The notes under the pieces were generated by a model that searched no databases, was not told the DNA's origin, and saw only the letters and a list, made by a program, of their open reading frames with translations. A DNA stretch of 64,000 nucleotides from Candidatus Woesebacteria bacterium (lineage in GTDB: Bacteria > Patescibacteriota > Microgenomatia > UBA8517): assembly GCA_013374835.1 (NCBI GenBank), contig CP055307.1, forward strand, positions 813,304 to 877,303, written 5' to 3'. A program made the position numbers and the translations under genes. Below are positions 42,454-64,000 of the stretch, piece after piece (positions within the stretch are counted from its first letter, which is position 1; the number at the start of each line of letters is the position of its first letter).

Positions 42454-42526
42454 GCCTGGGTAGCTCAGTGGTTAGAGCACATGTTTTGTAAACATGGGGT
42501 CGTGGGTTCAAATCCCACCCTAGGCT
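42454..42526 (+). tRNA. tRNA-Thr (anticodon TGT)
   Basis: Manual cloverleaf: acceptor GCCTGGG/CCTAGGC, anticodon stem CATGT/ACATG with loop TTTGTAA, T-arm GGGTTCAAATCCC. Confidence 0.9.
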
Positions 42527-42546
42527 CAAGATAAAAATAAAGATTT

Positions 42547-42630
42547 GCCAAGGTGACGGAGTGGACAAACGTAGCAGTCTGTAAAACTGCCGGTCGAAAG
42601 GCCTACCCAGGTTCGAATCCTGGCCTTGGC
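42547..42630 (+). tRNA. tRNA-Tyr (anticodon GTA), long variable arm
   Basis: Acceptor GCCAAGG/CCTTGGC, anticodon loop CTGTAAA, long variable arm, T-arm CAGGTTCGAATCCTG. Confidence 0.9.
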
Positions 42631-42641
42631 ACAACTTCCTC

Positions 42642-43844: not shown

Positions 43845-45044
43845 TTAAATAAGCACTCTTCGATTAACTTCATCGCCAATATAAAGTTTATTACCATCTA
43901 CAAAAGAAAAACACGGCTGACCCATCGTTCTACTGGTACGCCCCTCATAATTTACCATTCGAGTGTCGATATCAGGTTGGCCCAATACAGCATCTGCACT
44001 AGAATTATGGGAATTTGGCAAAGAATTAAATATTAAAACTCGATGATTACCCAAATCTGAAATAAAAATATTGTTTCCTTTTAAATAAACGTAAACGGGA
44101 GTTTTGAGAGTGTTTGCTCCACTTAAAGAACTTCCTTGATTAGCAGAATTAGAAAAAAAATTTTCTTGTCCTATAACAATGTCTGCAGGCTGATTATTAT
44201 AAGTAGGAAAGCTATTCCAAACAATAACCCTGTGATTATTTGTATCTGCCACCAATAAAATTTTCTGGTTGCTAAATACACTAGAAGGGTAAGACATTGA
44301 AGAAGGGCCAATACCCCCATGATTAATGTCCTTTGTATTAAAATCTGGCTGGCCAAGAACCATGTCAGCAGCTGCATTATTTTCAGTTGGGATATCATTA
44401 AATACCAAAACCCTGTTATTACCCGAATCGGCAATAAAAAGTTTATCTCCATCATAAAAAACGCCTTCAGGCTGCCAAAGAGTTCTGTTAGTTGGTGCTG
44501 ATAAACCTTGATTTGCTTTATTGCTCGAGAAATCCGGTTGTCCAATTACAATATCTGCATCCGCTTGATTATTCGAGGGAACACTATTGAAAACAAGGAC
44601 TCTGTTGTTATTTCTATCAGCAATTATAAGTTTCTCACTATCTGTAGTTAAACCAACAGGATGGCATAGGGTATGTGCACTTTTTCCTCCGTTATTGCAA
44701 GTGGAGGAAACAAAATCAGGTTGACCAAGAACTATGCTTGCAGGGGAACCATTCACCTGCGGAATTTCATTGAATATTAACACACGATGGTCTAATTGGT
44801 CAGAAACTATCAGTTTACTTCCAACAATAACTCCCCCTTGAACACCTTGTGACAATTTATCTTGTGCAGGGAAACTTACAGGATCAGAAACAAAATCCGG
44901 TTGCCCCACAACCACACTTGCTGACATATTGGTGTAGTAGGCCAATAATTGATGGTTAATGATTAATGGACAAAAAAATAAGAAGGTTAAACTTAAAAAT
45001 ATACTTATAAAATTTATTAAAGTTTGTGTGTAAAGCTGAAACAA
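43845..45044 (-). CDS. secreted NHL-repeat (six-bladed beta-propeller) protein
   Basis: N-terminal signal/anchor. Six roughly 48-aa repeats with [IV]V[LIV]GQPDF...NRVL[IV]FN. Confidence 0.7.
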   Translation of the reverse strand: MFQLYTQTLINFISIFLSLTFLFFCPLIINHQLLAYYTNMSASVVVGQPDFVSDPVSFPAQDKLSQGVQGGVIVGSKLIVSDQLDHRVLIFNEIPQVNGSPASIVLGQPDFVSSTCNNGGKSAHTLCHPVGLTTDSEKLIIADRNNNRVLVFNSVPSNNQADADIVIGQPDFSSNKANQGLSAPTNRTLWQPEGVFYDGDKLFIADSGNNRVLVFNDIPTENNAAADMVLGQPDFNTKDINHGGIGPSSMSYPSSVFSNQKILLVADTNNHRVIVWNSFPTYNNQPADIVIGQENFFSNSANQGSSLSGANTLKTPVYVYLKGNNIFISDLGNHRVLIFNSLPNSHNSSADAVLGQPDIDTRMVNYEGRTSRTMGQPCFSFVDGNKLYIGDEVNRRVLI

Positions 45045-45132: not shown

Positions 45133-46053
45133 TTAATGTGTATCTCGCACCAGTTCCGGTTGAACAAAAGCGTTCATATAGGTTTCTATGAATTCTTCGT
45201 TTATAATTTTACCTTTTTTGTTTACTGTTAATTTTACTAACAATCCTTTTTTTGTTTCTTCGCTCCACATTTGATCAAAAACCAAATTACCAAGCGAGTA
45301 ATAAATTGGTTTTCCTTCTAGATACTCTATCTTTTGTACCCAGTGCGGGTGATGACCAGCAATTACGTCTGCCCCGCTCTCAACTATTTTTTTAGCCAAA
45401 TCTTTTTGATAAATTTCAGGCTCAGATTTATACTCCACTCCCCAGTGGATACCGACAACAAGAAAATCAACTTCTTTTTTTGATTCTGAAATCAGCTTAA
45501 AATCTAAATCTTTAGGAGTGTTTGTTAAAAAATCGAATCCGAGAAAACCTATTTTTATATCCCCTACTTTTATTGTTTCAAGATTATCAAAGCCAACAAA
45601 TTTTATCCCAGATTGGTCCAAAATTTTTTTTGTTTCTTCTATCCCTTCTTGTCCGTAATTACTCGCATGGTTGTTGGAAAGAGTTACAACGTCAACTCCA
45701 GCGAATAACAAACCTTCAATCATTTTTGGATCTGTGCAAAATTTAAATCCACTATCTGTTTTTGGACAACCGGATACGATAGGGTTTTCAAGATTAACAA
45801 AAAAAATATCGGCACTTTTTGTTAAATTTGCAATTTTTCTAAACGGATAAGCATAATCTCCTGTCTTAATACTTTCTATCATTACAGATCTAGCGAGCAT
45901 TACGTCCCCTCCGAGAAGGATTGTGGCCGTTAATTCCTGTTGAAGTTTAGACTTGGACAAAGGGGTTGTTTTAGGTACATTTTTATTAAGAAACAAGGAT
46001 GAAATTGCCAATACAAAAATAAAAATTACTAAAATTGAAGCTGCTATTTTCAT
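45133..46053 (-). CDS. capA: CapA/PgsA-family metallophosphatase (poly-gamma-glutamate capsule biosynthesis-like)
   Basis: N-terminal anchor and the CapA pattern ILLGGDVML...FVNLENP...GHHPHW. Confidence 0.75.
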   Translation of the reverse strand: MKIAASILVIFIFVLAISSLFLNKNVPKTTPLSKSKLQQELTATILLGGDVMLARSVMIESIKTGDYAYPFRKIANLTKSADIFFVNLENPIVSGCPKTDSGFKFCTDPKMIEGLLFAGVDVVTLSNNHASNYGQEGIEETKKILDQSGIKFVGFDNLETIKVGDIKIGFLGFDFLTNTPKDLDFKLISESKKEVDFLVVGIHWGVEYKSEPEIYQKDLAKKIVESGADVIAGHHPHWVQKIEYLEGKPIYYSLGNLVFDQMWSEETKKGLLVKLTVNKKGKIINEEFIETYMNAFVQPELVRDTH

Positions 46054-46105: not shown

Positions 46106-46177
46106 GCCTGGGTAGCTCAGGGGTAGAGCACTTTCTTGGTAAGAAAGGGGTCGCGGGTTCAAATCCCGCCTCAGGCT
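46106..46177 (+). tRNA. tRNA-Thr (anticodon GGT)
   Basis: Acceptor GCCTGGG/CTCAGGC, anticodon stem CTTTC/GAAAG with loop TTGGTAA, T-arm GGGTTCAAATCCCGC. Confidence 0.9.
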
Positions 46178-47318: not shown

Positions 47319-47389
47319 AGGTCTGTCGTTCAGTGGTAGGACCCGGGTCTCCAAAACCCGTGACGGGGGTTCGATTCCCTCCAGACCTG
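47319..47389 (+). tRNA. tRNA-Trp (anticodon CCA)
   Basis: Acceptor AGGTCTG/CAGACCT, anticodon stem CGGGT/ACCCG with loop CTCCAAA, T-arm GGGGGTTCGATTCCCTC, discriminator G. Found in the classic position upstream of secE-nusG. Confidence 0.9.
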
Positions 47390-55570: not shown

Positions 55571-56005
55571 ATGGCCACAAAGAAAGTTTTAACTACAGTT
55601 AAGGTAAATCTAAAAGCTGGTGAAGCAACACCCGCTGCTCCACTAGGGCCTATTTTGGGACAACACGGCGTAGCCATTATGGACTTTGTCAAGGCTTATA
55701 ATGACAAAACAGCAGAAAAAAAGGGCCAGGTTATCCCGGCTGTTATTACTATTTATGAGGATAGAAGTTTTGATTTCGAGCTTAGGCTTGCTCCTGTTTC
55801 CGAGATGATTAAAAAGACATTAAAAATTGAAAAGGGGTCCGGGGCAACGCCAAGGGATATTGTAGGTACCTTAAGTGATTCGCAAGTTAATGAAATAGCA
55901 AGGGAAAAAATGGCGGATCTGAATACTGATAATATTGAAGCAGCGAAGCGAATTGTCGCCGGAACTGCACGGAGCATGGGGGTAAAAATCAATGGGAAAA
56001 ACTAA
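55571..56005 (+). CDS. rplK: 50S ribosomal protein L11
   Basis: KAGEATPAAPLGPILGQHGV and a KOW-like N-terminus. Confidence 0.9.
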   Translation: MATKKVLTTVKVNLKAGEATPAAPLGPILGQHGVAIMDFVKAYNDKTAEKKGQVIPAVITIYEDRSFDFELRLAPVSEMIKKTLKIEKGSGATPRDIVGTLSDSQVNEIAREKMADLNTDNIEAAKRIVAGTARSMGVKINGKN

Positions 56006-56702
56006 AACAGCAATAGTCGGAGAAACAGGAAAAGATTCAGATCTTAAAAATGCAGAACCTGTCCTTGAAAAACCAGAGGCAGAAGAAACCCAAAAATCTT
56101 ACAAAAGAGCCAAAAAGGAGCGAGGAAAAAGATATAAGGAAATGAAATCCAAAATAGATAAAAACAAGCTTTATTCAATTAAAGACGCTTTAAAGCTTAT
56201 TAAGGAAACACACCTTGCAAAGTTTGACGGTACAGTAGAGCTTCATATAAAAACAAAAAAAGAGGATATCCAGATCAATCTTGAATTACCGCATTCCACA
56301 GGAAAAGAAAAACGCATTGAATTAGCAAATGAATCAACAATAAAAAAACTTGAATCGGGAAAAATAGATTTTGATATACTTCTAGCAACGGCCGAATTTA
56401 TGCCTAAATTGGTGCCTTTTGCAAAAATTTTGGGTCCACGTGGACTTATGCCAAATCCCAAAAATAAAACCCTAATAAAAACCGAAAAAGAAGCAGAATC
56501 TTTTTCCGCAAAAAGCGTGACAATAAAGACGGAAAAGAAGCAGCCTGTTATCCACACCACAGTCGGCAAGCTTTCAATGGACCCAACTAAAATTGCTGAA
56601 AATATAAAGGCAATATTTGACGCTATCGGCGTTAAAAACATAGATCGCGCGCATGTTTGCGCCAGCATGTCTCCTTCTGTGAAGATTGATCTGAATAGTT
56701 GA
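55992..56702 (+). CDS. rplA: 50S ribosomal protein L1
   Basis: KFDGTVELHIK and ILGPRGLMPNPK motifs. Confidence 0.9.
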   Translation: MGKTKTAIVGETGKDSDLKNAEPVLEKPEAEETQKSYKRAKKERGKRYKEMKSKIDKNKLYSIKDALKLIKETHLAKFDGTVELHIKTKKEDIQINLELPHSTGKEKRIELANESTIKKLESGKIDFDILLATAEFMPKLVPFAKILGPRGLMPNPKNKTLIKTEKEAESFSAKSVTIKTEKKQPVIHTTVGKLSMDPTKIAENIKAIFDAIGVKNIDRAHVCASMSPSVKIDLNS

Positions 56703-56707
56703 GAAAT

Positions 56708-57241
56708 TCAACTGCTTCTTGCTCTTATTAGTTTCCTGATTAGCTGTCTGCAAAATAGCTCGGGAACATTAATACCCTTATCATTAAAATCTTTGGAAAG
56801 CAATTCTGCGGCTCTCATGTGAGATTCTCTTTGACTATTATCTAAAAAAACTACTTCCCCGCTCAATGATTCCCTTTCGCTACCCCGCTCATCAATGAAA
56901 TTTTTATGCCTGTCTCTAAGTATAGCCTCGTACTCTATGATTGCGGATATTGTTTCTTTAGAATAAAAATCGCTTTGGATATCAAAAACGAGTCGAAGTT
57001 TCTGAGAAAAAAAATCATCTAAAGTGGCCCTTGCTCTTTTGCTATTTAAAAATTGAGTTCTTTTCTGGTCTTTATCTAAATTCGGTTGAGGATTTCTGTC
57101 ATAATAAGTAAGTATGTCTTCTTTAAAGTATTCGCTTTCTTCAAATTTTTGCATAAACAAAACAGGGTCATTTGTAGTCTCTGGACCTCTTTCTTTTCCT
57201 TTATCAATTTCTAATTCTGTAGCATCGTCATTCATTTTCAA
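56708..57241 (-). CDS. hypothetical protein (paralogue of the next gene)
   Basis: N-terminus TNDPVLFMQKFEESEYFK resembles TDDPLLFVNKAVSNPEYKY of the upstream ORF. Sits between rplA and rplJ on the opposite strand. Confidence 0.45.
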   Translation of the reverse strand: MKMNDDATELEIDKGKERGPETTNDPVLFMQKFEESEYFKEDILTYYDRNPQPNLDKDQKRTQFLNSKRARATLDDFFSQKLRLVFDIQSDFYSKETISAIIEYEAILRDRHKNFIDERGSERESLSGEVVFLDNSQRESHMRAAELLSKDFNDKGINVPELFCRQLIRKLIRARSS

Positions 57242-57635
57242 ATCTTCTATTATTATATAAAATGCTCACCATCCCGCGTGCAAAATGTATATTAGGAGCA
57301 ATCTTAGCATCAACGAGCGCTCTTGCTGCTTTATTGTGGAGGCCCTTTTTGATGAAATTCATAAGATCCTTTTCTTGATCAATGGTGCCTTTTTTAGCAA
57401 AATCATCTGAGAACTCTGAATATGATCGAAATTTGTCCTTAAAATCATCAGGATATTTATTTTTATTATATAAAAGTCTTAAAACTGAGGCATTAAAATC
57501 TGTTACAAAAATCTCACTTGCCAAGCCAGACTCTGCATATTTATATTCTGGATTAGAAACAGCTTTATTTACAAATAACAATGGGTCATCTGTTTGCGAA
57601 ATATTACTTTTTATTTCACCGTTCTCTTTATTCAT
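57228..57635 (-). CDS. hypothetical protein (paralogue of 56708-57241)
   Basis: Overlaps its neighbours by 14 nt and 4 nt. Shares an N-terminal motif with the downstream ORF. Confidence 0.45.
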   Translation of the reverse strand: MNKENGEIKSNISQTDDPLLFVNKAVSNPEYKYAESGLASEIFVTDFNASVLRLLYNKNKYPDDFKDKFRSYSEFSDDFAKKGTIDQEKDLMNFIKKGLHNKAARALVDAKIAPNIHFARGMVSILYNNRRFENE

Positions 57636-58186
57636 GATCGCTTAGCTGTTATTATTTTAGATGTTACAAGCCCGAGAAAGATTTCTTTATTGAAAGGTGC
57701 CGGTAATACAAGTTGTTGCATTTCAATATTTGCAATTGTGGAAAGCCCTTCAAAAACAACATAAGGAATGTTTCTATCGGAAAAATAACTGTTGGGTTTT
57801 AGTATAAATCTTTGTTCTGGAAGTCCTTTTTTGTTCCCCGTGACCTGACTATGAAGTAAGAACTCTCCGCTACGAATTCTGGTTTGGAGAATCTTAAGAA
57901 CCTCAAAAAAATCACAGTGTTCCCTGATTCCATGTTCACAGTAAGCAGGTTCTCCTTTCTTTGCCTTGCGACATCTCAAAATTGCATAGTCAAGAAATTT
58001 TTTTCCAAAAGAATAATAGACATCCTCTACTCTTATGCAACAGCCGTCGATTTCTCCATTGCGATAATCTTCTAATAACGTAAGACTATTTTCCAATGTT
58101 AGTAAAGGATATCTGCTATCTATAATCTCAGTTAGTGTTGCAGGGATAGATTCGCGCTTACCTACCGAATTTTCAATCTGAGTCAT
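57632..58186 (-). CDS. hypothetical Cys/His-containing protein
   Basis: First gene of a three-gene minus-strand set. Contains GCCIRVED...CRKAKKGEPAYCEHGIREHC. Confidence 0.45.
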   Translation of the reverse strand: MTQIENSVGKRESIPATLTEIIDSRYPLLTLENSLTLLEDYRNGEIDGCCIRVEDVYYSFGKKFLDYAILRCRKAKKGEPAYCEHGIREHCDFFEVLKILQTRIRSGEFLLHSQVTGNKKGLPEQRFILKPNSYFSDRNIPYVVFEGLSTIANIEMQQLVLPAPFNKEIFLGLVTSKIITAKRS

Positions 58187-58353: not shown

Positions 58354-58884
58354 ATGAAATCAGATACTAAAATTAAACCTGAAAAAAAGAAAAGGGTAGA
58401 AGAGCTTTCTGCTATCATGAAATCTGCTAAAGGCTTCGCATTGATAGACTACAGCTCTCTTGATGTAAAGTCTCAGCAGGAGCTCAAAAAAAGGCTCAAG
58501 AAAGCTGGGGCAAATATGCTTGTAGCTAAAAATACGCTCCTTAAAATTGCCGCAATAAATGCCGGATTTAAGGAAATCTCAGATAATGAAAATGCTTTAA
58601 CCAACCAAACTGCCTTGGTTTTTTCAAATAGCGATCCTGTTTCCCCTATTCAAATCGTAGGAAGATTTCAAACTGAAACCGAAATCACAGATTTTAAAGC
58701 TGGCATTATTGAGGGTATTTTTCAAGATAAAGAAAGCTTAATAAGAATATCAAAACTTCCGAGTAGAGATGAACTTTTGGCAAGAGTTGTCGGAGCAGTG
58801 TCTTCACCTTTGTATGGAATAACAGGAATTTTAAATGCAAACATGCAAAAGCTTGTTTGGATTTTAACCGAGGCAAGGGGGTGA
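58354..58884 (+). CDS. rplJ: 50S ribosomal protein L10
   Basis: Full-length L10 pattern (GANMLVAKNTLLK...). Confidence 0.9.
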   Translation: MKSDTKIKPEKKKRVEELSAIMKSAKGFALIDYSSLDVKSQQELKKRLKKAGANMLVAKNTLLKIAAINAGFKEISDNENALTNQTALVFSNSDPVSPIQIVGRFQTETEITDFKAGIIEGIFQDKESLIRISKLPSRDELLARVVGAVSSPLYGITGILNANMQKLVWILTEARG

Positions 58885-58889
58885 AAATT

Positions 58890-59315
58890 ATGGCAGCAGA
58901 AGATAAAGAGAATAAAAAAGTAAGCGAGAAGGTTGGAAAAATTGTCGATGAAATTAGCAAGCTTTCCGTGCTTGAGCTATCCGATCTTGTAAATGAATTG
59001 CAGGATAAACTCGGAGTTTCACCTGTTGCTATGACTGCTCCAGCTGTAACCTCTACGACAAACACAGGAGAGCCTGCCAGTGAATCGTCTTCTGACGAAG
59101 GCGGCAACAAAACCGTTGTTCTTACTAACGCAGGTGCAAACAAAATAGCTGTCATAAAGGCTATACGCGAGATCAATCAGAATCTTGGTCTTAAGGAAGC
59201 AAAAGATATGACAGAAGCGGTTCCAGCTGAGATATTGAAAGATGTTAAGGCAGAAGAGGCAAAAGAAGCAGCCGAAAAATTAAAAGCAGCTGGAGCAACA
59301 GTTGAATTGAAATAA
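58890..59315 (+). CDS. rplL: 50S ribosomal protein L7/L12
   Basis: Ala/Glu-rich hinge and C-terminal KAIREINQNLGLKEAKDMTEAVPAEILKDV...AGATVELK. The ATG at 58890 is preceded by AGGGGG. Confidence 0.9.
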   Translation: MAAEDKENKKVSEKVGKIVDEISKLSVLELSDLVNELQDKLGVSPVAMTAPAVTSTTNTGEPASESSSDEGGNKTVVLTNAGANKIAVIKAIREINQNLGLKEAKDMTEAVPAEILKDVKAEEAKEAAEKLKAAGATVELK

Positions 59316-59404: not shown

Positions 59405-60139
59405 CTATTGACTTGTCAAAAATTTAATAAGATCAAGAAGTTTGTCTGGAGGAAAACTTGCCAAGGTCGCCTCAGGAAGTTCTTCAAGCAGTAAAGCTGA
59501 GAAACTCTTGTCTATCTCAGCTAATCTTTCATTTTCTTTGACTGTCTTTTGATATCCTTTCCACAACCTTTCGTTAAATCGCATAATCACTTTATTTAAG
59601 TGCTCATCAGAAATATTAGGCAATGCTATTGTAAGTAAGTCAGCGGCAGCTTGTTCTAAACCCCTACCTCGCGTTTCCTCTTTTGGCTCACCACCAACAA
59701 CAATTGCACCCGGGTATTCAGACTCTTTTGCAGATTCATAGCACCATTTGATTAAAGCTTCAAATTTCTCTCTGCCAAGCGCTGCAAAAACTCCTGCTGC
59801 CCTATCTGTTTTGTCAGTCAATTCTGAGTCCCCAATCTGTTCAAGGTCTGCCCATCTTTCACCTTTTGGTCTTTGACGATCATAAACCCAAACCCCGACT
59901 ACTTGCCCATCTTGGTTCAATTTAACTCTTGCTCGAAATTGTGTGTGGGTAGTGAGCTTCTCTCTTTCTTTGTCACCAATCTCTAAATTAATACCAGCTT
60001 GGCGCAGAGCTTCTCTTAAAAATTCTCTTGTATCACCATCAAAAAAAACAGGCCCTAAATTATCTAAAGATTCTTCAATTCGTGAAATAATTTTTTCTCT
60101 AGGGTTATTGATTTGTTTTTGCTCTAGCTCATTGGTCAT
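59405..60139 (-). CDS. hypothetical acidic protein
   Basis: Clean 244-aa ORF with no motif. Locally GC-richer than its surroundings by eye. Confidence 0.5.
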   Translation of the reverse strand: MTNELEQKQINNPREKIISRIEESLDNLGPVFFDGDTREFLREALRQAGINLEIGDKEREKLTTHTQFRARVKLNQDGQVVGVWVYDRQRPKGERWADLEQIGDSELTDKTDRAAGVFAALGREKFEALIKWCYESAKESEYPGAIVVGGEPKEETRGRGLEQAAADLLTIALPNISDEHLNKVIMRFNERLWKGYQKTVKENERLAEIDKSFSALLLEELPEATLASFPPDKLLDLIKFLTSQ

Positions 60140-60294: not shown

Positions 60295-61188
60295 TTAGCC
60301 TTTTACTATCTTTTCGAAATACTTAATAATCTCTAAAGCTACATTAACACCCGTGTATCTTTCAAAACCCGTAAACTGGGGTCCGGGGTTGATTTCTAAA
60401 ATATAGGGTTTGCCTGTCTCTTTATTAATCATAATGTCAACTCCGGCGATTTCTGTCTTCATTACTTCACTTGTTCTTTCGGCTATATTTCTGATTTCTG
60501 GGTATAAATTTAAATCAAATAATTCTCCCCTACCTCCTTGACTAATATTGCTTCTAAACTCTCCTTCACGAGTTGGTATGCGTTTCATTGCTCCAATTGC
60601 TTTATATCCAACTGTAAATACTCGAATATCTCCGTCGTTGGGAATAAATTCACGAATCACAAAAGAAGGTGAAACTCCTTCTAAATCTTTGGCAATTGTT
60701 TTAAGTTCCTCAAGATTATCTGCCTTAAAGACACCTTTTCCTTGTCTGCCTTCACTGACTTTGATAATTAAAGGGAAGCTAAAACTATTAATCACATAGT
60801 TAATGGATTTCGAATCAAAAAGTACTGCAGAATACGGAAATGGTAGAGAATTTTCAGTTTGCTTGAGATAATCAATTGCGGGAGTAAGATAAAAATTGTA
60901 ACTAGGATCTATAGCTTTATAATTAACTATTTTGGTCTTTCTGGTTTTATTTAAAAAAAGACAAGCTGTGTACCATTCCCATCTGCGTTTTCCTGCTGAC
61001 CAGAGGTAAATTAAATCATAATTCTTAAGGGTTTTTCCTCTAAGCGTCGGGTTAAAAAAATCTGACCCAGTTTCTATTATAAGCTCGTTTGTGTAGCAGC
61101 CTTCTACTTTGTGTCCTCGTTTTTCTCCTTCTTCCTGGAGGCGAATCAACTGATTGTTTTTAACTAAACCAACTATTAAAATCTTCAT
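60295..61188 (-). CDS. RimK-family ATP-grasp ligase (alpha-L-glutamate ligase-like) 3 of 3
   Basis: ATP-grasp core FPLIIKVSEGRQGKGVF, EFRSNISQGGRGELFDL, IAGVDIMINKETGKPYILEINPGPQF. Confidence 0.75.
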   Translation of the reverse strand: MKILIVGLVKNNQLIRLQEEGEKRGHKVEGCYTNELIIETGSDFFNPTLRGKTLKNYDLIYLWSAGKRRWEWYTACLFLNKTRKTKIVNYKAIDPSYNFYLTPAIDYLKQTENSLPFPYSAVLFDSKSINYVINSFSFPLIIKVSEGRQGKGVFKADNLEELKTIAKDLEGVSPSFVIREFIPNDGDIRVFTVGYKAIGAMKRIPTREGEFRSNISQGGRGELFDLNLYPEIRNIAERTSEVMKTEIAGVDIMINKETGKPYILEINPGPQFTGFERYTGVNVALEIIKYFEKIVKG

Positions 61189-62057
61189 CTTGCGTTTGCT
61201 ATGGCATATTCAACGAATACTTTTCCGATATTTTCATTATATGCTTTTTCCATACCTACAAAACCTGCAGTATGGTTTACTTCGAGAACATATTTTTTGT
61301 TGTCTTTAGTTATGAGCAAATCTACTCCGCCAATTTCGAGACCAACTGCCTTAAGGGCAGATTTTGCCAAATTTAGACCGTCTTCATCTAGATCAAATTT
61401 TTCGACACGCCCGCCTAAAGAAAAATTTGCTCTGAACTCACCTTTTGCTGGTATCCTTCTCATTGTAAAAACCCTGTCTCCAATAATTAAAACACGAAGG
61501 TCGTATTTATAGGGAATAAATTCTTGAAGGATAAAATTTTTAGCTTCATGGGAATGTTTTTCTGCATCTTCGATAAATCTATAAAGACCATTTAAATTAG
61601 AAATTTTGAACACATTTGCTCCTTTTCCCATGCGTGTAGATTTAATCACCAACGGGAAGCCTAAATAGCTTGATAAATTTTTGTAGTCTGAAAAATTTCT
61701 TGATTGAGCAGTGTTTGGAACCGGGATTTTGTTTAAAGCCATCTTTGTCAAATCAGATGTTTTATTTATAAGATATTGATCGGAAAGAAAATTGTTGTCA
61801 AATATTTTAATTCCCTTTTTTCTTAATCCTAGAAGAACGACTATAATTGGTTTTATTGAACTAAATATTCCTCTTGTAATTATTATATTGAATTCTTGAT
61901 CCGTAAGACCTTTTACGCTCAAACTTCCTCCAAATATATTGAAGGAAAAATTGCTTAAATCTATTAGAGTAAAGCCGTGATTTAGTGCTTTTATTTCTTC
62001 TTTAATGCGTCTATTTTCAATAAGTGAAGGAAGTGTTGTAACTAAAGCTACCTTCAT
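61185..62057 (-). CDS. RimK-family ATP-grasp ligase 2 of 3
   Basis: FPLVIKSTRMGKGANVF, GEFRANFSLGGRVEKFDL, IGGVDLLITKDNKKYVLEVNHTAGF. Has 4-nt overlaps with both neighbours. Confidence 0.75.
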   Translation of the reverse strand: MKVALVTTLPSLIENRRIKEEIKALNHGFTLIDLSNFSFNIFGGSLSVKGLTDQEFNIIITRGIFSSIKPIIVVLLGLRKKGIKIFDNNFLSDQYLINKTSDLTKMALNKIPVPNTAQSRNFSDYKNLSSYLGFPLVIKSTRMGKGANVFKISNLNGLYRFIEDAEKHSHEAKNFILQEFIPYKYDLRVLIIGDRVFTMRRIPAKGEFRANFSLGGRVEKFDLDEDGLNLAKSALKAVGLEIGGVDLLITKDNKKYVLEVNHTAGFVGMEKAYNENIGKVFVEYAIANAR

Positions 62058-63379
62058 TTTTTTCCTCTTGCCTCCTTTACTTTTTCAATTGGAATATGCG
62101 GATCAACTAAAAACCCTTTGAGATTTTTCCTGCCGATTATTACCGGATATTTGAGAGCCATCCTTTTTGCAACTGATGCAGGAGTTACTATTTTTCTTCC
62201 TGCAAGCCAAAAGGTGAGACTGATAACAGGTCTTTCTTCTTTCCCCAATGAGCTTTTGAAAGATTTCGTCCATAAAATATTGTTCTTATCAAGTAGTCCT
62301 AGTTCTTTGGCTAAATCTTTACTTATCGATGTTCTCCACGCTCCTGTGTCAATTTTGGCAAAAATTTTTTTTCTCTCCCCCTTCTTCATACCTTTTATTT
62401 TTATTTCTTCAAGAGATGATATTGTTTTAATTCCTTCATCTGCTTTGACTCTATCTGAAAAATCGGACATGAAGAGCGCTTTTGCAATCTTAACCCCATG
62501 CTCTGCATCTCTTACTTTAAGATCTTCTACCCTTTCAAGCCTTTTTCTAAGTCCTGCCATGTTAGCAAGCTGTATCTGGGTACCGGGCTGATAGTTTAAC
62601 TCAAGAACCATCGGCCCTTTAGTAGGATGAAGAACAATATCGACCCCTAAAAGTCCAAGCCCAGATGCTTCTTGGCTCAAAACCGCAATTTTTAGCATAT
62701 CTGTCCAATGAGGAATTTTAATACCGTGAAGCTTTCTTTTTGTGCCAGGTTTATAGCGAATTTGATTACCATACCAAATAGCCTTTGTAGTTATACCTGT
62801 CGCTATATCAACTCCCACTCCTATTGCACCCTGGTGCAAATTTGCTCGGCCGCCGGAGTCTTTTGTGGGAAGACGCAACATGGCCATTACCGGCACTTTG
62901 TTAAAGACAATAATTCTTATATCGGGCGTACCGCGATAGGCATATTTTCTGAAAGCTTTATGACGAGGTACATATTCCTGAATAAAGGCTGCGTCCGGTG
63001 AGTTGTGCATGCTGAAAGCTCCTTCTAAAATATCTAAAACATGGAGTTTTAAATCCTCTTCGAGTATTTTTTTTCTACTGGTTGTGATCCAACCTGTTTT
63101 GTCTTTGGACTTCTTTTTAATTACTATAATCCCATTTCCTCCCAGTCCTCTGCTTGGTTTAACTACAAAAGCTTCAGGCAGGCTGTTCCAATCAAAATCA
63201 AGAATATCTTTCGGCTTTATAAATTTTTTATATATTAACGGAGTCGGGATATTGGCCTTTTTAAGCACTTTTTCAGTCAACAGCTTTGATGAAGCAATTC
63301 GCTTTGACTTTGGTTTATTGTATTGATATGAAAAAAGTTGAGTTCTTGCGTTAAGACCCAAGATGTTTTGAACTTTCAT
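62054..63379 (-). CDS. ATP-grasp ligase fused to a C-terminal retropepsin-like aspartic peptidase domain (DTGA; DUF785/putative ATP-dependent zinc protease family)
   Basis: N-terminal ATP-grasp (VVKPSRGLGGNGIIVIKK, HQGAIGVGVD, LLGVDIVLHPTKGPMVLELNYQPG). The C-terminal roughly 130 aa carry IFAKIDTGAWRTSIS with the retropepsin D-T-G-A signature. Confidence 0.65.
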   Translation of the reverse strand: MKVQNILGLNARTQLFSYQYNKPKSKRIASSKLLTEKVLKKANIPTPLIYKKFIKPKDILDFDWNSLPEAFVVKPSRGLGGNGIIVIKKKSKDKTGWITTSRKKILEEDLKLHVLDILEGAFSMHNSPDAAFIQEYVPRHKAFRKYAYRGTPDIRIIVFNKVPVMAMLRLPTKDSGGRANLHQGAIGVGVDIATGITTKAIWYGNQIRYKPGTKRKLHGIKIPHWTDMLKIAVLSQEASGLGLLGVDIVLHPTKGPMVLELNYQPGTQIQLANMAGLRKRLERVEDLKVRDAEHGVKIAKALFMSDFSDRVKADEGIKTISSLEEIKIKGMKKGERKKIFAKIDTGAWRTSISKDLAKELGLLDKNNILWTKSFKSSLGKEERPVISLTFWLAGRKIVTPASVAKRMALKYPVIIGRKNLKGFLVDPHIPIEKVKEARGKK

Positions 63380-63383
63380 AGAT

Positions 63384-64000
63384 TTAGCCTTTAATTAGTT
63401 TTCTGAATCTCCAGTATTCCAATACGCGAAGACCTGTATATTTTCCTAATATGAGATCGAAAATCGCAACAGATAAAAGAGTAATTTCCGGATTGAGCAA
63501 AGCATAACGCTGAAGCGACTGTGTTGTAAGAAACATAAATGATATCAAAGACAAAATAATTGTTTCCGTTATAAAAGTTACCGCTGTACGTGCACTTTTT
63601 CCAAGCTGAAGTTTGGTAAAATCTTCCGCAAGAAGAACCAAAAGCAGCACAGGAAAAATCGAAACATCGGTAAGTCCTGGAATTTTGACCAAGGGTGCAA
63701 GAAACAATACTAAAAGAACTCCACAGACAACAAACCAGAGAATCAAAGACATCCTCGGTAGGTATTGCAGCTTAATTTTTATTTTCCTTAAAAGAATTCT
63801 GAAAAATGTTGAGGCAGAAACTATAACTAAAAACAGTAAAAGACCAACGACAGGACCAATTGCGACAAATACTATTGATAAAGCGGCCGGCAGAAAAATA
63901 CCAAATCCTCTTAAACCTATTATATGGCGCGTTGCTGCTATAACAGCGGTTATTAAGGGCAAAAGAATTAAAAGGACTATTGTATTAGGCGGCACTCCCG
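63384..64000 (-). CDS. polytopic membrane protein, 5' end beyond window (possible 7TM module of the RimK-associated membrane protein family)
   Basis: Six or more hydrophobic helices. The ORF is still open at the window edge, so the N-terminus is missing. It lies 5 nt upstream of the ATP-grasp genes. Confidence 0.45.
   Translation of the reverse strand, partial: GVPPNTIVLLILLPLITAVIAATRHIIGLRGFGIFLPAALSIVFVAIGPVVGLLLFLVIVSASTFFRILLRKIKIKLQYLPRMSLILWFVVCGVLLVLFLAPLVKIPGLTDVSIFPVLLLVLLAEDFTKLQLGKSARTAVTFITETIILSLISFMFLTTQSLQRYALLNPEITLLSVAIFDLILGKYTGLRVLEYWRFRKLIKG

Follow-up and report, generated by a model that had tools for sequence, protein, structure and literature searches.

The stretch of DNA analysed here, 64,000 nucleotides of contig CP055307.1 of a Candidatus Woesebacteria bacterium (assembly GCA_013374835.1, positions 813,304 to 877,303; hereafter the window), ends on its minus strand in four tightly packed open reading frames (ORFs) that occupy 60295-64000 in the ORF listing. 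In the order of transcription they encode an RloB-like membrane protein with seven transmembrane helices (7-TM protein; 63384 to >64000, the 3' two-thirds of a gene for 299 amino acids, PF14402), a 441-amino-acid fusion of an ATP-grasp ligase to a retropepsin-like protease (62054-63379; PF14397, TIGR02291 and PF05618), and two RimK-family ligases matching PF08443 and TIGR00768, namely ligase A (290 amino acids, 61185-62057) and ligase B (297 amino acids, 60295-61188). The ORFs are long and have strong family matches, and they are real genes and not chance reading frames. The fusion gene and ligase A share an ATGA stop/start overlap at 62054-62057, and ligases A and B share another at 61185-61188, indicating translational coupling; a gap of 4 nt, with no overlap, separates the membrane gene from the 441-amino-acid gene. 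The four genes form one translationally coupled operon, and this coupling and the domain identities of the encoded proteins are near certain. The locus is a rearranged, domain-shuffled variant of the Rlo and Rim systems, and not a new kind of system.

The initial annotation had described a membrane protein running past the end of the window, followed by three consecutive RimK-family paralogs with 4-nt overlaps, the first of them fused to an aspartic-peptidase domain (DUF785) with a DTGA signature. The overlaps were found as described, the polytopic membrane protein was borne out by its family match and by the recovered 5' end of its gene, and the fused domain passed both profile and fold tests. 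The first ligase, however, is an RloC-like enzyme of the ATPgrasp_ST family and shares only 23% identity with the two RimK-type enzymes.

Proteins of the operon

The ligase domain of the fusion protein (amino acids 15-285, 62525-63337) belongs to the ATPgrasp_ST/TIGR02291 family. It matched PF14397 (ATPgrasp_ST) over amino acids 15-285 at 2e-64 and 217.9 bits (cut-off 31.4), and TIGR02291 ('alpha-L-glutamate ligase-like') within amino acids 3-287 at 4e-78, over nearly the full model. The latter score, 262.5 bits, lies below the cut-off of 314.2, so that the protein is a family member and not a certified equivalog. The motifs RANLHQGA and E260-x-N262 are present, and each of the three ligases of the operon retains intact ATP-grasp motifs. 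A full-length AlphaFold model had a confidence (pLDDT) of 79.8, and the best Foldseek matches of the ligase domain were ArgX, RimK and LysX.

The C-terminal part of the fusion (amino acids 318-427, 62099-62428) is a retropepsin-like domain of the RloA/RimB/DUF785 family, with the catalytic motif D344-T-G-A, preceded by K342, at 62339-62350 in the translation. Amino acids 320-427 matched PF05618 (Zn_protease/DUF785) at 5e-6 and 26.8 bits (cut-off 27.0), a match that is precomputed for most fusion homologs, and the C-terminus matched NCBIfam RloA3 at 1.7e-5. A profile search with this domain recovered RloA2 (9g59, 2.8e-7), RloA (9g58, 1.4e-6), the Legionella DUF785 protein 2pma (5e-4), Ddi1 (about 0.01) and retroviral protease. 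The AlphaFold model of the domain (pLDDT 84.9) gave the same picture, its best PDB fold matches being 9g58, 2pma and 9g59, with HIV-1 protease, the Rickettsia retropepsin, foamy-virus protease and Ddi1 coming next. Across 27 aligned homologs the DTGA motif is invariant, as are K342-x-D344-T-G, R383, R406, G416-R417 and, in the ligase domain, E260-x-N262.

Because the fusion protein has neither a signal peptide nor a transmembrane segment, it is predicted to be cytoplasmic. Its retropepsin domain contains no cysteine, and across homologs has a net charge of +9 to +17; we considered this positive charge as support for an acidic substrate, and discounted it since the ligase domain is equally basic. 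The databases hold more than 5900 relatives of the fusion. The best 120 all measure 425-463 amino acids, with a query coverage of 96% or more, and those with names are from Woesebacteria/Patescibacteria.

The missing flank of the 7-TM gene was taken from a public contig of 77.9 kb (L001) that encodes an identical 441-amino-acid protein. The gene (L001:9097-9996) extends to approximately window position 64283, 283 nt past the window end, and the full-length product of 299 amino acids has a hydropathy profile consistent with a signal peptide, an external linker of about 75 amino acids rich in Pro, Glu and Thr, seven transmembrane helices, and a cytoplasmic tail bearing the motif GLRxxExxRF. PF14402 (7TM_transglut) was matched at 5e-22 by the ORF within the window and at 8.8e-22 by the full 299 amino acids. 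NCBIfam RloB was matched at 3e-15, below its trusted cut-off and only at model positions 313-507 of 508 (the last 195). The initial annotation had proposed looking for an inactive transglutaminase domain on a longer contig. None is present: no transglutaminase family matched the full protein, in which only the signal peptide and the low-complexity linker precede the first helix. Longer relatives of the 7-TM protein carry PKD domains in place of the transglutaminase, and this comparison of modules shows that the transglutaminase-like domain is dispensable. Solved structures include no relative of the 7-TM protein by sequence, and it may be an exporter, an anchor or an acceptor. The C-terminal GLRxxExxRF motif is invariant across 79 loci of the candidate phyla radiation (CPR) and recurs in proteins that join a protease to a 7-TM domain; a role as docking site for the ligase is plausible.

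Ligases A and B are 34% identical to each other. Ligase A matched PF08443 at 6e-27 and TIGR00768 at 136.9 bits, just under the cut-off of 143.4, and ligase B matched them at 1.6e-32 and, above that cut-off, at 153.5 bits. The closest solved structures were Pseudomonas RimK (7qyr/7qys) for ligase A, and RimK 7qys, 7qyr, 5zct and 4iwx for ligase B, and both are nearer to true RimK structures than to LysX/ArgX. Neither reached the cut-off of 331 bits set by the equivalog model for the S6 glutamate ligase RimK (PRK10446), their scores being 57.5 and 81.8 bits.

One explanation for such ligases would be LysX/ArgX-LysW amino-acid biosynthesis, in which residues are likewise ligated onto a protein C-terminal carboxylate, or synthesis of a poly-gamma-glutamate capsule linked to a CapA gene that the initial annotation had pointed out at 45133. 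LysX was matched at 96-110 bits, ArgX and LysX are among the nearest solved folds to the ligase domain of the fusion, and the CapA-like gene is genuine (PGA_cap, 3e-56; 45133-46053, minus strand). The LysX scores, however, are far below the cut-off of 275.6, no ORF in the window encodes an acid-tailed, LysW-like carrier, and no lysine or arginine pathway gene was found among the neighbors examined; these are not ordinary LysX or ArgX enzymes, as the initial annotation had allowed they might prove to be. The suggested link of the CapA-like gene to the operon likewise found no support, since the two lie 14 kb apart. The gene adjoins one for an NHL-repeat protein (43845-45044), and no CapB or CapC was found in the two adjacent ORFs scanned (the NHL-repeat protein and an ORF without a Pfam match). 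Poly-gamma-glutamate is made by a Mur-ligase-type enzyme and not by an ATP-grasp ligase. On the family scores and gene context, we regard this explanation as all but refuted.

The G+C content of the window is even, at about 0.34-0.38. No Rfam element, riboswitches included, lies near the operon, and scans for promoters and terminators gave counts no higher than in shuffled sequence. A Glu-rich ORF of 244 amino acids lies immediately 3' of the ligases (59405-60139, minus strand). It matched no family and is confined to contigs of this one organism, and so is probably not part of the system. On the other side, outside the window, contig L001 has a 75-amino-acid gene of the HTH_17/MerR type (L001:8837-9064, approximately window 64316-64543) immediately upstream of the 7-TM gene, with similar genes at about 11 Woesebacteria loci. 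It probably belongs to the operon and may be its regulator. It matched the helix-turn-helix model 'mad1' of PADLOC (2.3e-11), probably through generic similarity; apart from one such generic match, no anti-phage defence family was found.

Protease position in Rlo- and Rim-like systems

The closest described counterpart is the rloABC system of Pseudomonas aeruginosa, which consists of the secreted retropepsin RloA, the 7-TM protein RloB with an inactive transglutaminase domain, and the ATP-grasp ligase RloC (Lormand et al. 2025, mBio; PMC12239564). RloA cuts runs of at least eight Glu residues, and cells lacking the proteases have osmotic, antibiotic and shape defects that are suppressed when rloB or rloC is lost (PMC12239564). 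The role of Rlo in hypo-osmotic tolerance is a genetic phenotype from Pseudomonas only, and 96% of RloB matches are proteobacterial (PMC12239564). In Pseudomonas the system bears on osmotic tolerance, antibiotic sensitivity and biofilm formation. The operon in the window links the same three families, namely an ATPgrasp_ST/TIGR02291 ligase, a 7TM_transglut protein and a DTGA-bearing DUF785 retropepsin. It differs in that the periplasmic inactive transglutaminase domain of RloB is missing, that two RimK-type ligases have been appended, and that the host is a monoderm-like CPR bacterium. In addition, RloA is a stand-alone, secreted protein with a disulfide pair, whereas the protease in the window is cytoplasmic, lacks cysteines and forms the C-terminus of the ligase.

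RloA contacts poly-Glu through K46, which precedes the catalytic D48 by two residues, and through R114 and R137, spaced 23 residues from each other; the R114A and R137A substitutions abolish function (PMC12239564). In the fusion protein, K342/D344 and R383/R406 (also 23 apart) mirror this arrangement, and the alignment to RloA2 agrees. Judging by motif and spacing, K342, D344, R383 and R406 are probably the conserved counterparts of the RloA residues. The segment from DTG to RPVI is about 27 residues shorter than that of RloA. The conserved K342, R383 and R406 and the relatives with tandem protease domains suggest indirectly that the fused retropepsin may form a homodimeric active site and cleave poly-glutamate.

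A second precedent is RimB, a cytoplasmic homolog that trims the poly-Glu tails of ribosomal protein S6 and stimulates poly-alpha-Glu synthesis by RimK; RimB-RimK hybrids also exist, with the protease at the N-terminus (Little et al. 2025, JBC; PMC11957791). The window shares with these systems a cytoplasmic retropepsin joined to an ATP-grasp ligase, here putatively of glutamate, and the presence of RimK-family ligases, and RimB offers a precedent for one protease that both trims poly-Glu and stimulates its synthesis. In RimBK, however, the protease precedes a true RimK, whereas here it follows an RloC-type ligase, and Rim systems have no 7-TM partner.

A search of 1.84 billion representative proteins with only the protease domain as query gave 526 matches at E≤0.001. 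Among the best 150 of these, 97 consisted of the protease only (many of them fragments), about 36 were ATPgrasp_ST-protease fusions, 11 were protease-7TM proteins, four were tandem proteases, and there was one tandem protease-7TM protein and one protease-7TM-ATPgrasp_ST protein. The last of these, with all three domains in one protein, comes from a single 4-kb contig and should be regarded with caution. Protease-7TM proteins begin with a signal peptide, which together with seven helices and a cytoplasmic C-terminal tail places their protease outside the cell. The gene that follows them, and overlaps them, encodes an ATPgrasp_ST ligase of 288-304 amino acids without a protease domain. These two-gene modules (P0195, P0202 and P0133; L086-L092) have the same three domains as the window and the GLRxxExxRF motif, and their protease domains are 36-46% identical to that of the fusion, but their protease, single or tandem, is tethered outside, their ligase is plain, and they have no RimK-type accessories.

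Each module therefore has one protease whose position varies, being free and secreted in Pseudomonas, tethered to the 7-TM protein outside the cell in the two-gene modules, or fused to the ligase inside the cell in the window. This switch from outside to inside is unexpected. The fusions point to parts that cooperate, ligase with protease here, protease with 7-TM protein elsewhere, and all three in the single triple fusion, and such natural fusions constrain how the Rlo system works. A further match to the protease domain, P0175 (539 amino acids), has a retropepsin domain of this family at its C-terminus, joined to a class I lysyl-tRNA synthetase domain, and may be a real fusion or an artefact of gene calling.

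Conserved core and variable accessories in Patescibacteria

A scan of genomes with the single fusion sequence gave no matches, but when repeated with an alignment it recovered 80 loci from Woese-, Levyi-, Moran-, Pacei- and Kerfeldbacteria in which the match spans the protease domain. The best genome match of the fusion was to Candidatus Woesebacteria UBA1430 (94% identity); Woesebacteria are placed in the Microgenomates group of Patescibacteria. In every one of the 79 loci with upstream sequence, the fusion gene is immediately preceded by a 7-TM gene. RimK-type genes are more variable: among the 68 loci with sufficient flanking sequence, at least one lies downstream in 44 (one in 28 loci, two in 13 and three in 3) and none in the remaining 24. 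Since the pair of 7-TM protein and fusion is constant and the RimK-type genes vary, we regard the pair as the core of the module. Grouped at about 32% identity, the downstream RimK-type genes form at least 20 clusters, and orthologs of ligases A and B were found in only five related loci; these two genes are lineage-specific accessories outside the conserved core.

Other accessories in related loci include S-adenosylmethionine-dependent methyltransferases, YheC/D- or TTL-like ATP-grasp enzymes and GNAT proteins, and other CPR loci carry MATCAP-type carboxypeptidases with up to three further ATP-grasp ligases. One CPR-type locus (L093:1870-10678) encodes, in this order, a PKD-7TM protein, an 800-amino-acid ATPgrasp_ST-retropepsin-MATCAP fusion, an ATP-grasp ligase, a RimK-like ligase, a second MATCAP protein of 575 amino acids and another ATP-grasp ligase, so that its set of ligases and peptidases is much larger than that of the window. 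At two loci an extra stand-alone retropepsin of 143 or 157 amino acids directly follows the ligase-retropepsin fusion (L030:8283-8714 and L063:4332-4805). In one lineage (L090:6001-9695, L091 and L092), a protein with a signal peptide, tandem retropepsin and 7TM is followed by a plain ATPgrasp_ST ligase and then, directly, by a glutamate dehydrogenase on the same strand. The glutamate dehydrogenase neighbors, together with the MATCAP fusions and neighbors, point to glutamate-peptide chemistry.

Some of these arrangements resemble, by analogy only, the tail code of eukaryotic tubulin, in which amino-acid-adding ATP-grasp ligases (TTL/TTLL) are paired with trimming peptidases (MATCAP/CCP), and a MATCAP-family domain is fused to the ligase-retropepsin protein in some CPR relatives. 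The analogy is limited in that the modules are prokaryotic and coupled to a membrane protein, there is no tubulin-like target, and the window contains no MATCAP.

The S6 system itself suggests another explanation, in which the RimK-type ligases poly-glutamylate S6 or another protein C-terminus, the fused retropepsin trims the tail, and the 7-TM protein is merely a regulator or anchor. Genuine RimK enzymes are the nearest structures for both downstream ligases, the protease, like RimB, is cytoplasmic and free of cysteine, RimB-RimK hybrids are known (PMC11957791), and the operon adjoins rplJ-rplL in about 20 Woesebacteria loci. On the other hand, the RimK-type genes are of at least 20 subtypes and absent from more than a third of the loci (24/68), while the 7TM-fusion pair does not vary; the ligase to which the protease is fused is of the RloC type and not of the RimK type, and the order of the two domains is the reverse of that in RimBK; the RimK equivalog scores of 57-82 bits fall far short of 331; and the adjacency to ribosomal genes is simple synteny, the genes being convergent. 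The S6 gene, rpsF, was found neither in the window nor in any fetched locus. We therefore regard modification of S6 or another protein tail as unlikely.

The ligases could instead tailor the envelope by amidating a lipid-linked precursor or decorating it with peptides (a peptidoglycan stem, a teichoic-acid-like polymer or a polysaccharide), with the 7-TM protein as carrier, flippase or acceptor. The Pfam name of the ligase family, 'sugar-transfer associated ATP-grasp', is suggestive of such a role, as are the YdjC-like carbohydrate deacetylase domain carried by one related fusion and the cell-shape and beta-lactam phenotypes of Pseudomonas rlo mutants (PMC12239564). Gene neighborhoods are also consistent with it, in that MreB, a WecG-type glycosyltransferase, a polyprenyl synthase and a 426-amino-acid UppS-like prenyltransferase are encoded within 7 kb upstream of the operon on contig L001 (L001:2660-7772), and a class A penicillin-binding protein is encoded downstream in 34 Moranbacteria-type loci. 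The neighbors, however, vary by lineage and amount to housekeeping genes, among them those for YebC and RuvC. Moreover, the conserved Lys/Arg contacts of the retropepsin indicate a peptide substrate, specifically poly-Glu, and the structural neighbors of the ligase extend the C-termini of proteins or peptides. On this evidence we give tailoring of a lipid-linked precursor a small chance of being correct.

Graspetide clusters, a class of ribosomally synthesized and post-translationally modified peptides, have been reported in CPR bacteria (PMC8939145), and the ATP-grasp enzymes might accordingly cyclize a ribosomal precursor whose leader is removed by the retropepsin and whose product is exported by the 7-TM protein. 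Methyltransferase and GNAT genes in some related loci would fit such a cluster, and MvdC/MvdD-type maturases were matched at 25-30 bits, but those scores are weak against cut-offs of 350-475 and against the 137-153 bits obtained with the RimK family. No precursor ORF was found, no small gene is conserved across the 80 loci, and the reported CPR graspetide loci have other partners, namely metallopeptidases, TPR proteins and SPASM enzymes (PMC8939145). We consider a graspetide cluster very improbable.

We found no account in the literature of the CPR arrangement of a 7-TM protein with a ligase-retropepsin fusion. The module occurs widely among Patescibacteria. The genomes of this group are very small and their biosynthetic capacity is limited, and retention of the module under these conditions suggests an important function. 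Many metagenome-assembled genomes titled 'uncultured Gammaproteobacteria', 'Pseudomonadales' or 'Bdellovibrionales' (L006, L009-L011, L019 and others) have loci that are 60-73% identical to Woesebacteria proteins, among them the 0.81-Mb 'chromosome' OZ246419.1. These are probably mislabelled CPR genomes.

A proposed pathway for an acidic peptide

The reading that we favor, with moderate confidence, is that the operon makes an acidic, poly-glutamate-like peptide and trims it in association with the membrane. The RloC-type ligase would work at the membrane, where it probably docks on the GLRxxExxRF tail of its 7-TM partner, and would use ATP to add acidic residues onto free glutamate or another acceptor, the likeliest residue being L-Glu in alpha-peptide linkage as in RimK. 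The fused retropepsin, as a homodimer of two fusion chains, would cut the acidic chain and so control its length or release it and, if it acts as RimB does on RimK, may stimulate the ligase as well. The RimK paralogs may add further residues as lineage-specific tailoring, and the 7-TM protein would either hand the product to the cell surface or anchor the machinery there. We are less confident of some parts than of the whole: glutamate as the monomer is about evenly balanced at best, and export of the product is likewise no better than an even prospect. Profile, structure and neighborhood comparisons support the cautious reading of the initial annotation, which had suggested stepwise synthesis or processing of a peptide or poly-amino acid, possibly in association with the membrane.

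Several observations weigh against this pathway. No ORF in the window has an acidic tail, so that the small substrate ending in Glu or Asp envisaged by the initial annotation was not found there, and no small conserved ORF accompanies the module across the 80 loci. A model of export followed by trimming outside the cell cannot hold unchanged for the window, where the fused protease is cytoplasmic and not external like RloA and the 7TM-tethered relatives. The 7-TM protein resembles no solved transporter. NCBIfam trusted cut-offs were missed not only for TIGR02291 but also for RloA and RloB, and the shortened DTG-to-RPVI segment means that the specificity of the protease may differ from that of RloA. 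Positive charge is not specific to the protease, and the absence of RimK-type genes from so many loci indicates that their contribution is dispensable.

A broader conjecture, which we think doubtful though worth stating, is that a non-templated peptide chain has the 7-TM protein as its dedicated translocon or acceptor, and that the conserved ligase-protease core together with rapidly diversifying accessories (RimK-type, YheC/D-type, MATCAP, methyltransferase and GNAT) makes lineage-specific acidic hetero-oligopeptides that are displayed on, or released from, the CPR cell surface. If this were true, these molecules would represent a previously unrecognized envelope or host-interaction polymer in minimal episymbionts, and the inside and outside positions of the protease would correspond to two points of chain processing along one export path.

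Elsewhere in the window, tRNA genes flank the CapA-like region (42454-42631, 46106-46177 and 47319-47389). Three ORFs of 177, 135 and 184 amino acids without Pfam matches (56708-58186, minus strand) lie on the strand opposite to the ribosomal protein genes and split the usual rplKAJL cluster into rplK-rplA (55571-56702) and rplJ-rplL (58354-59315), an arrangement that is also present on contig L001.

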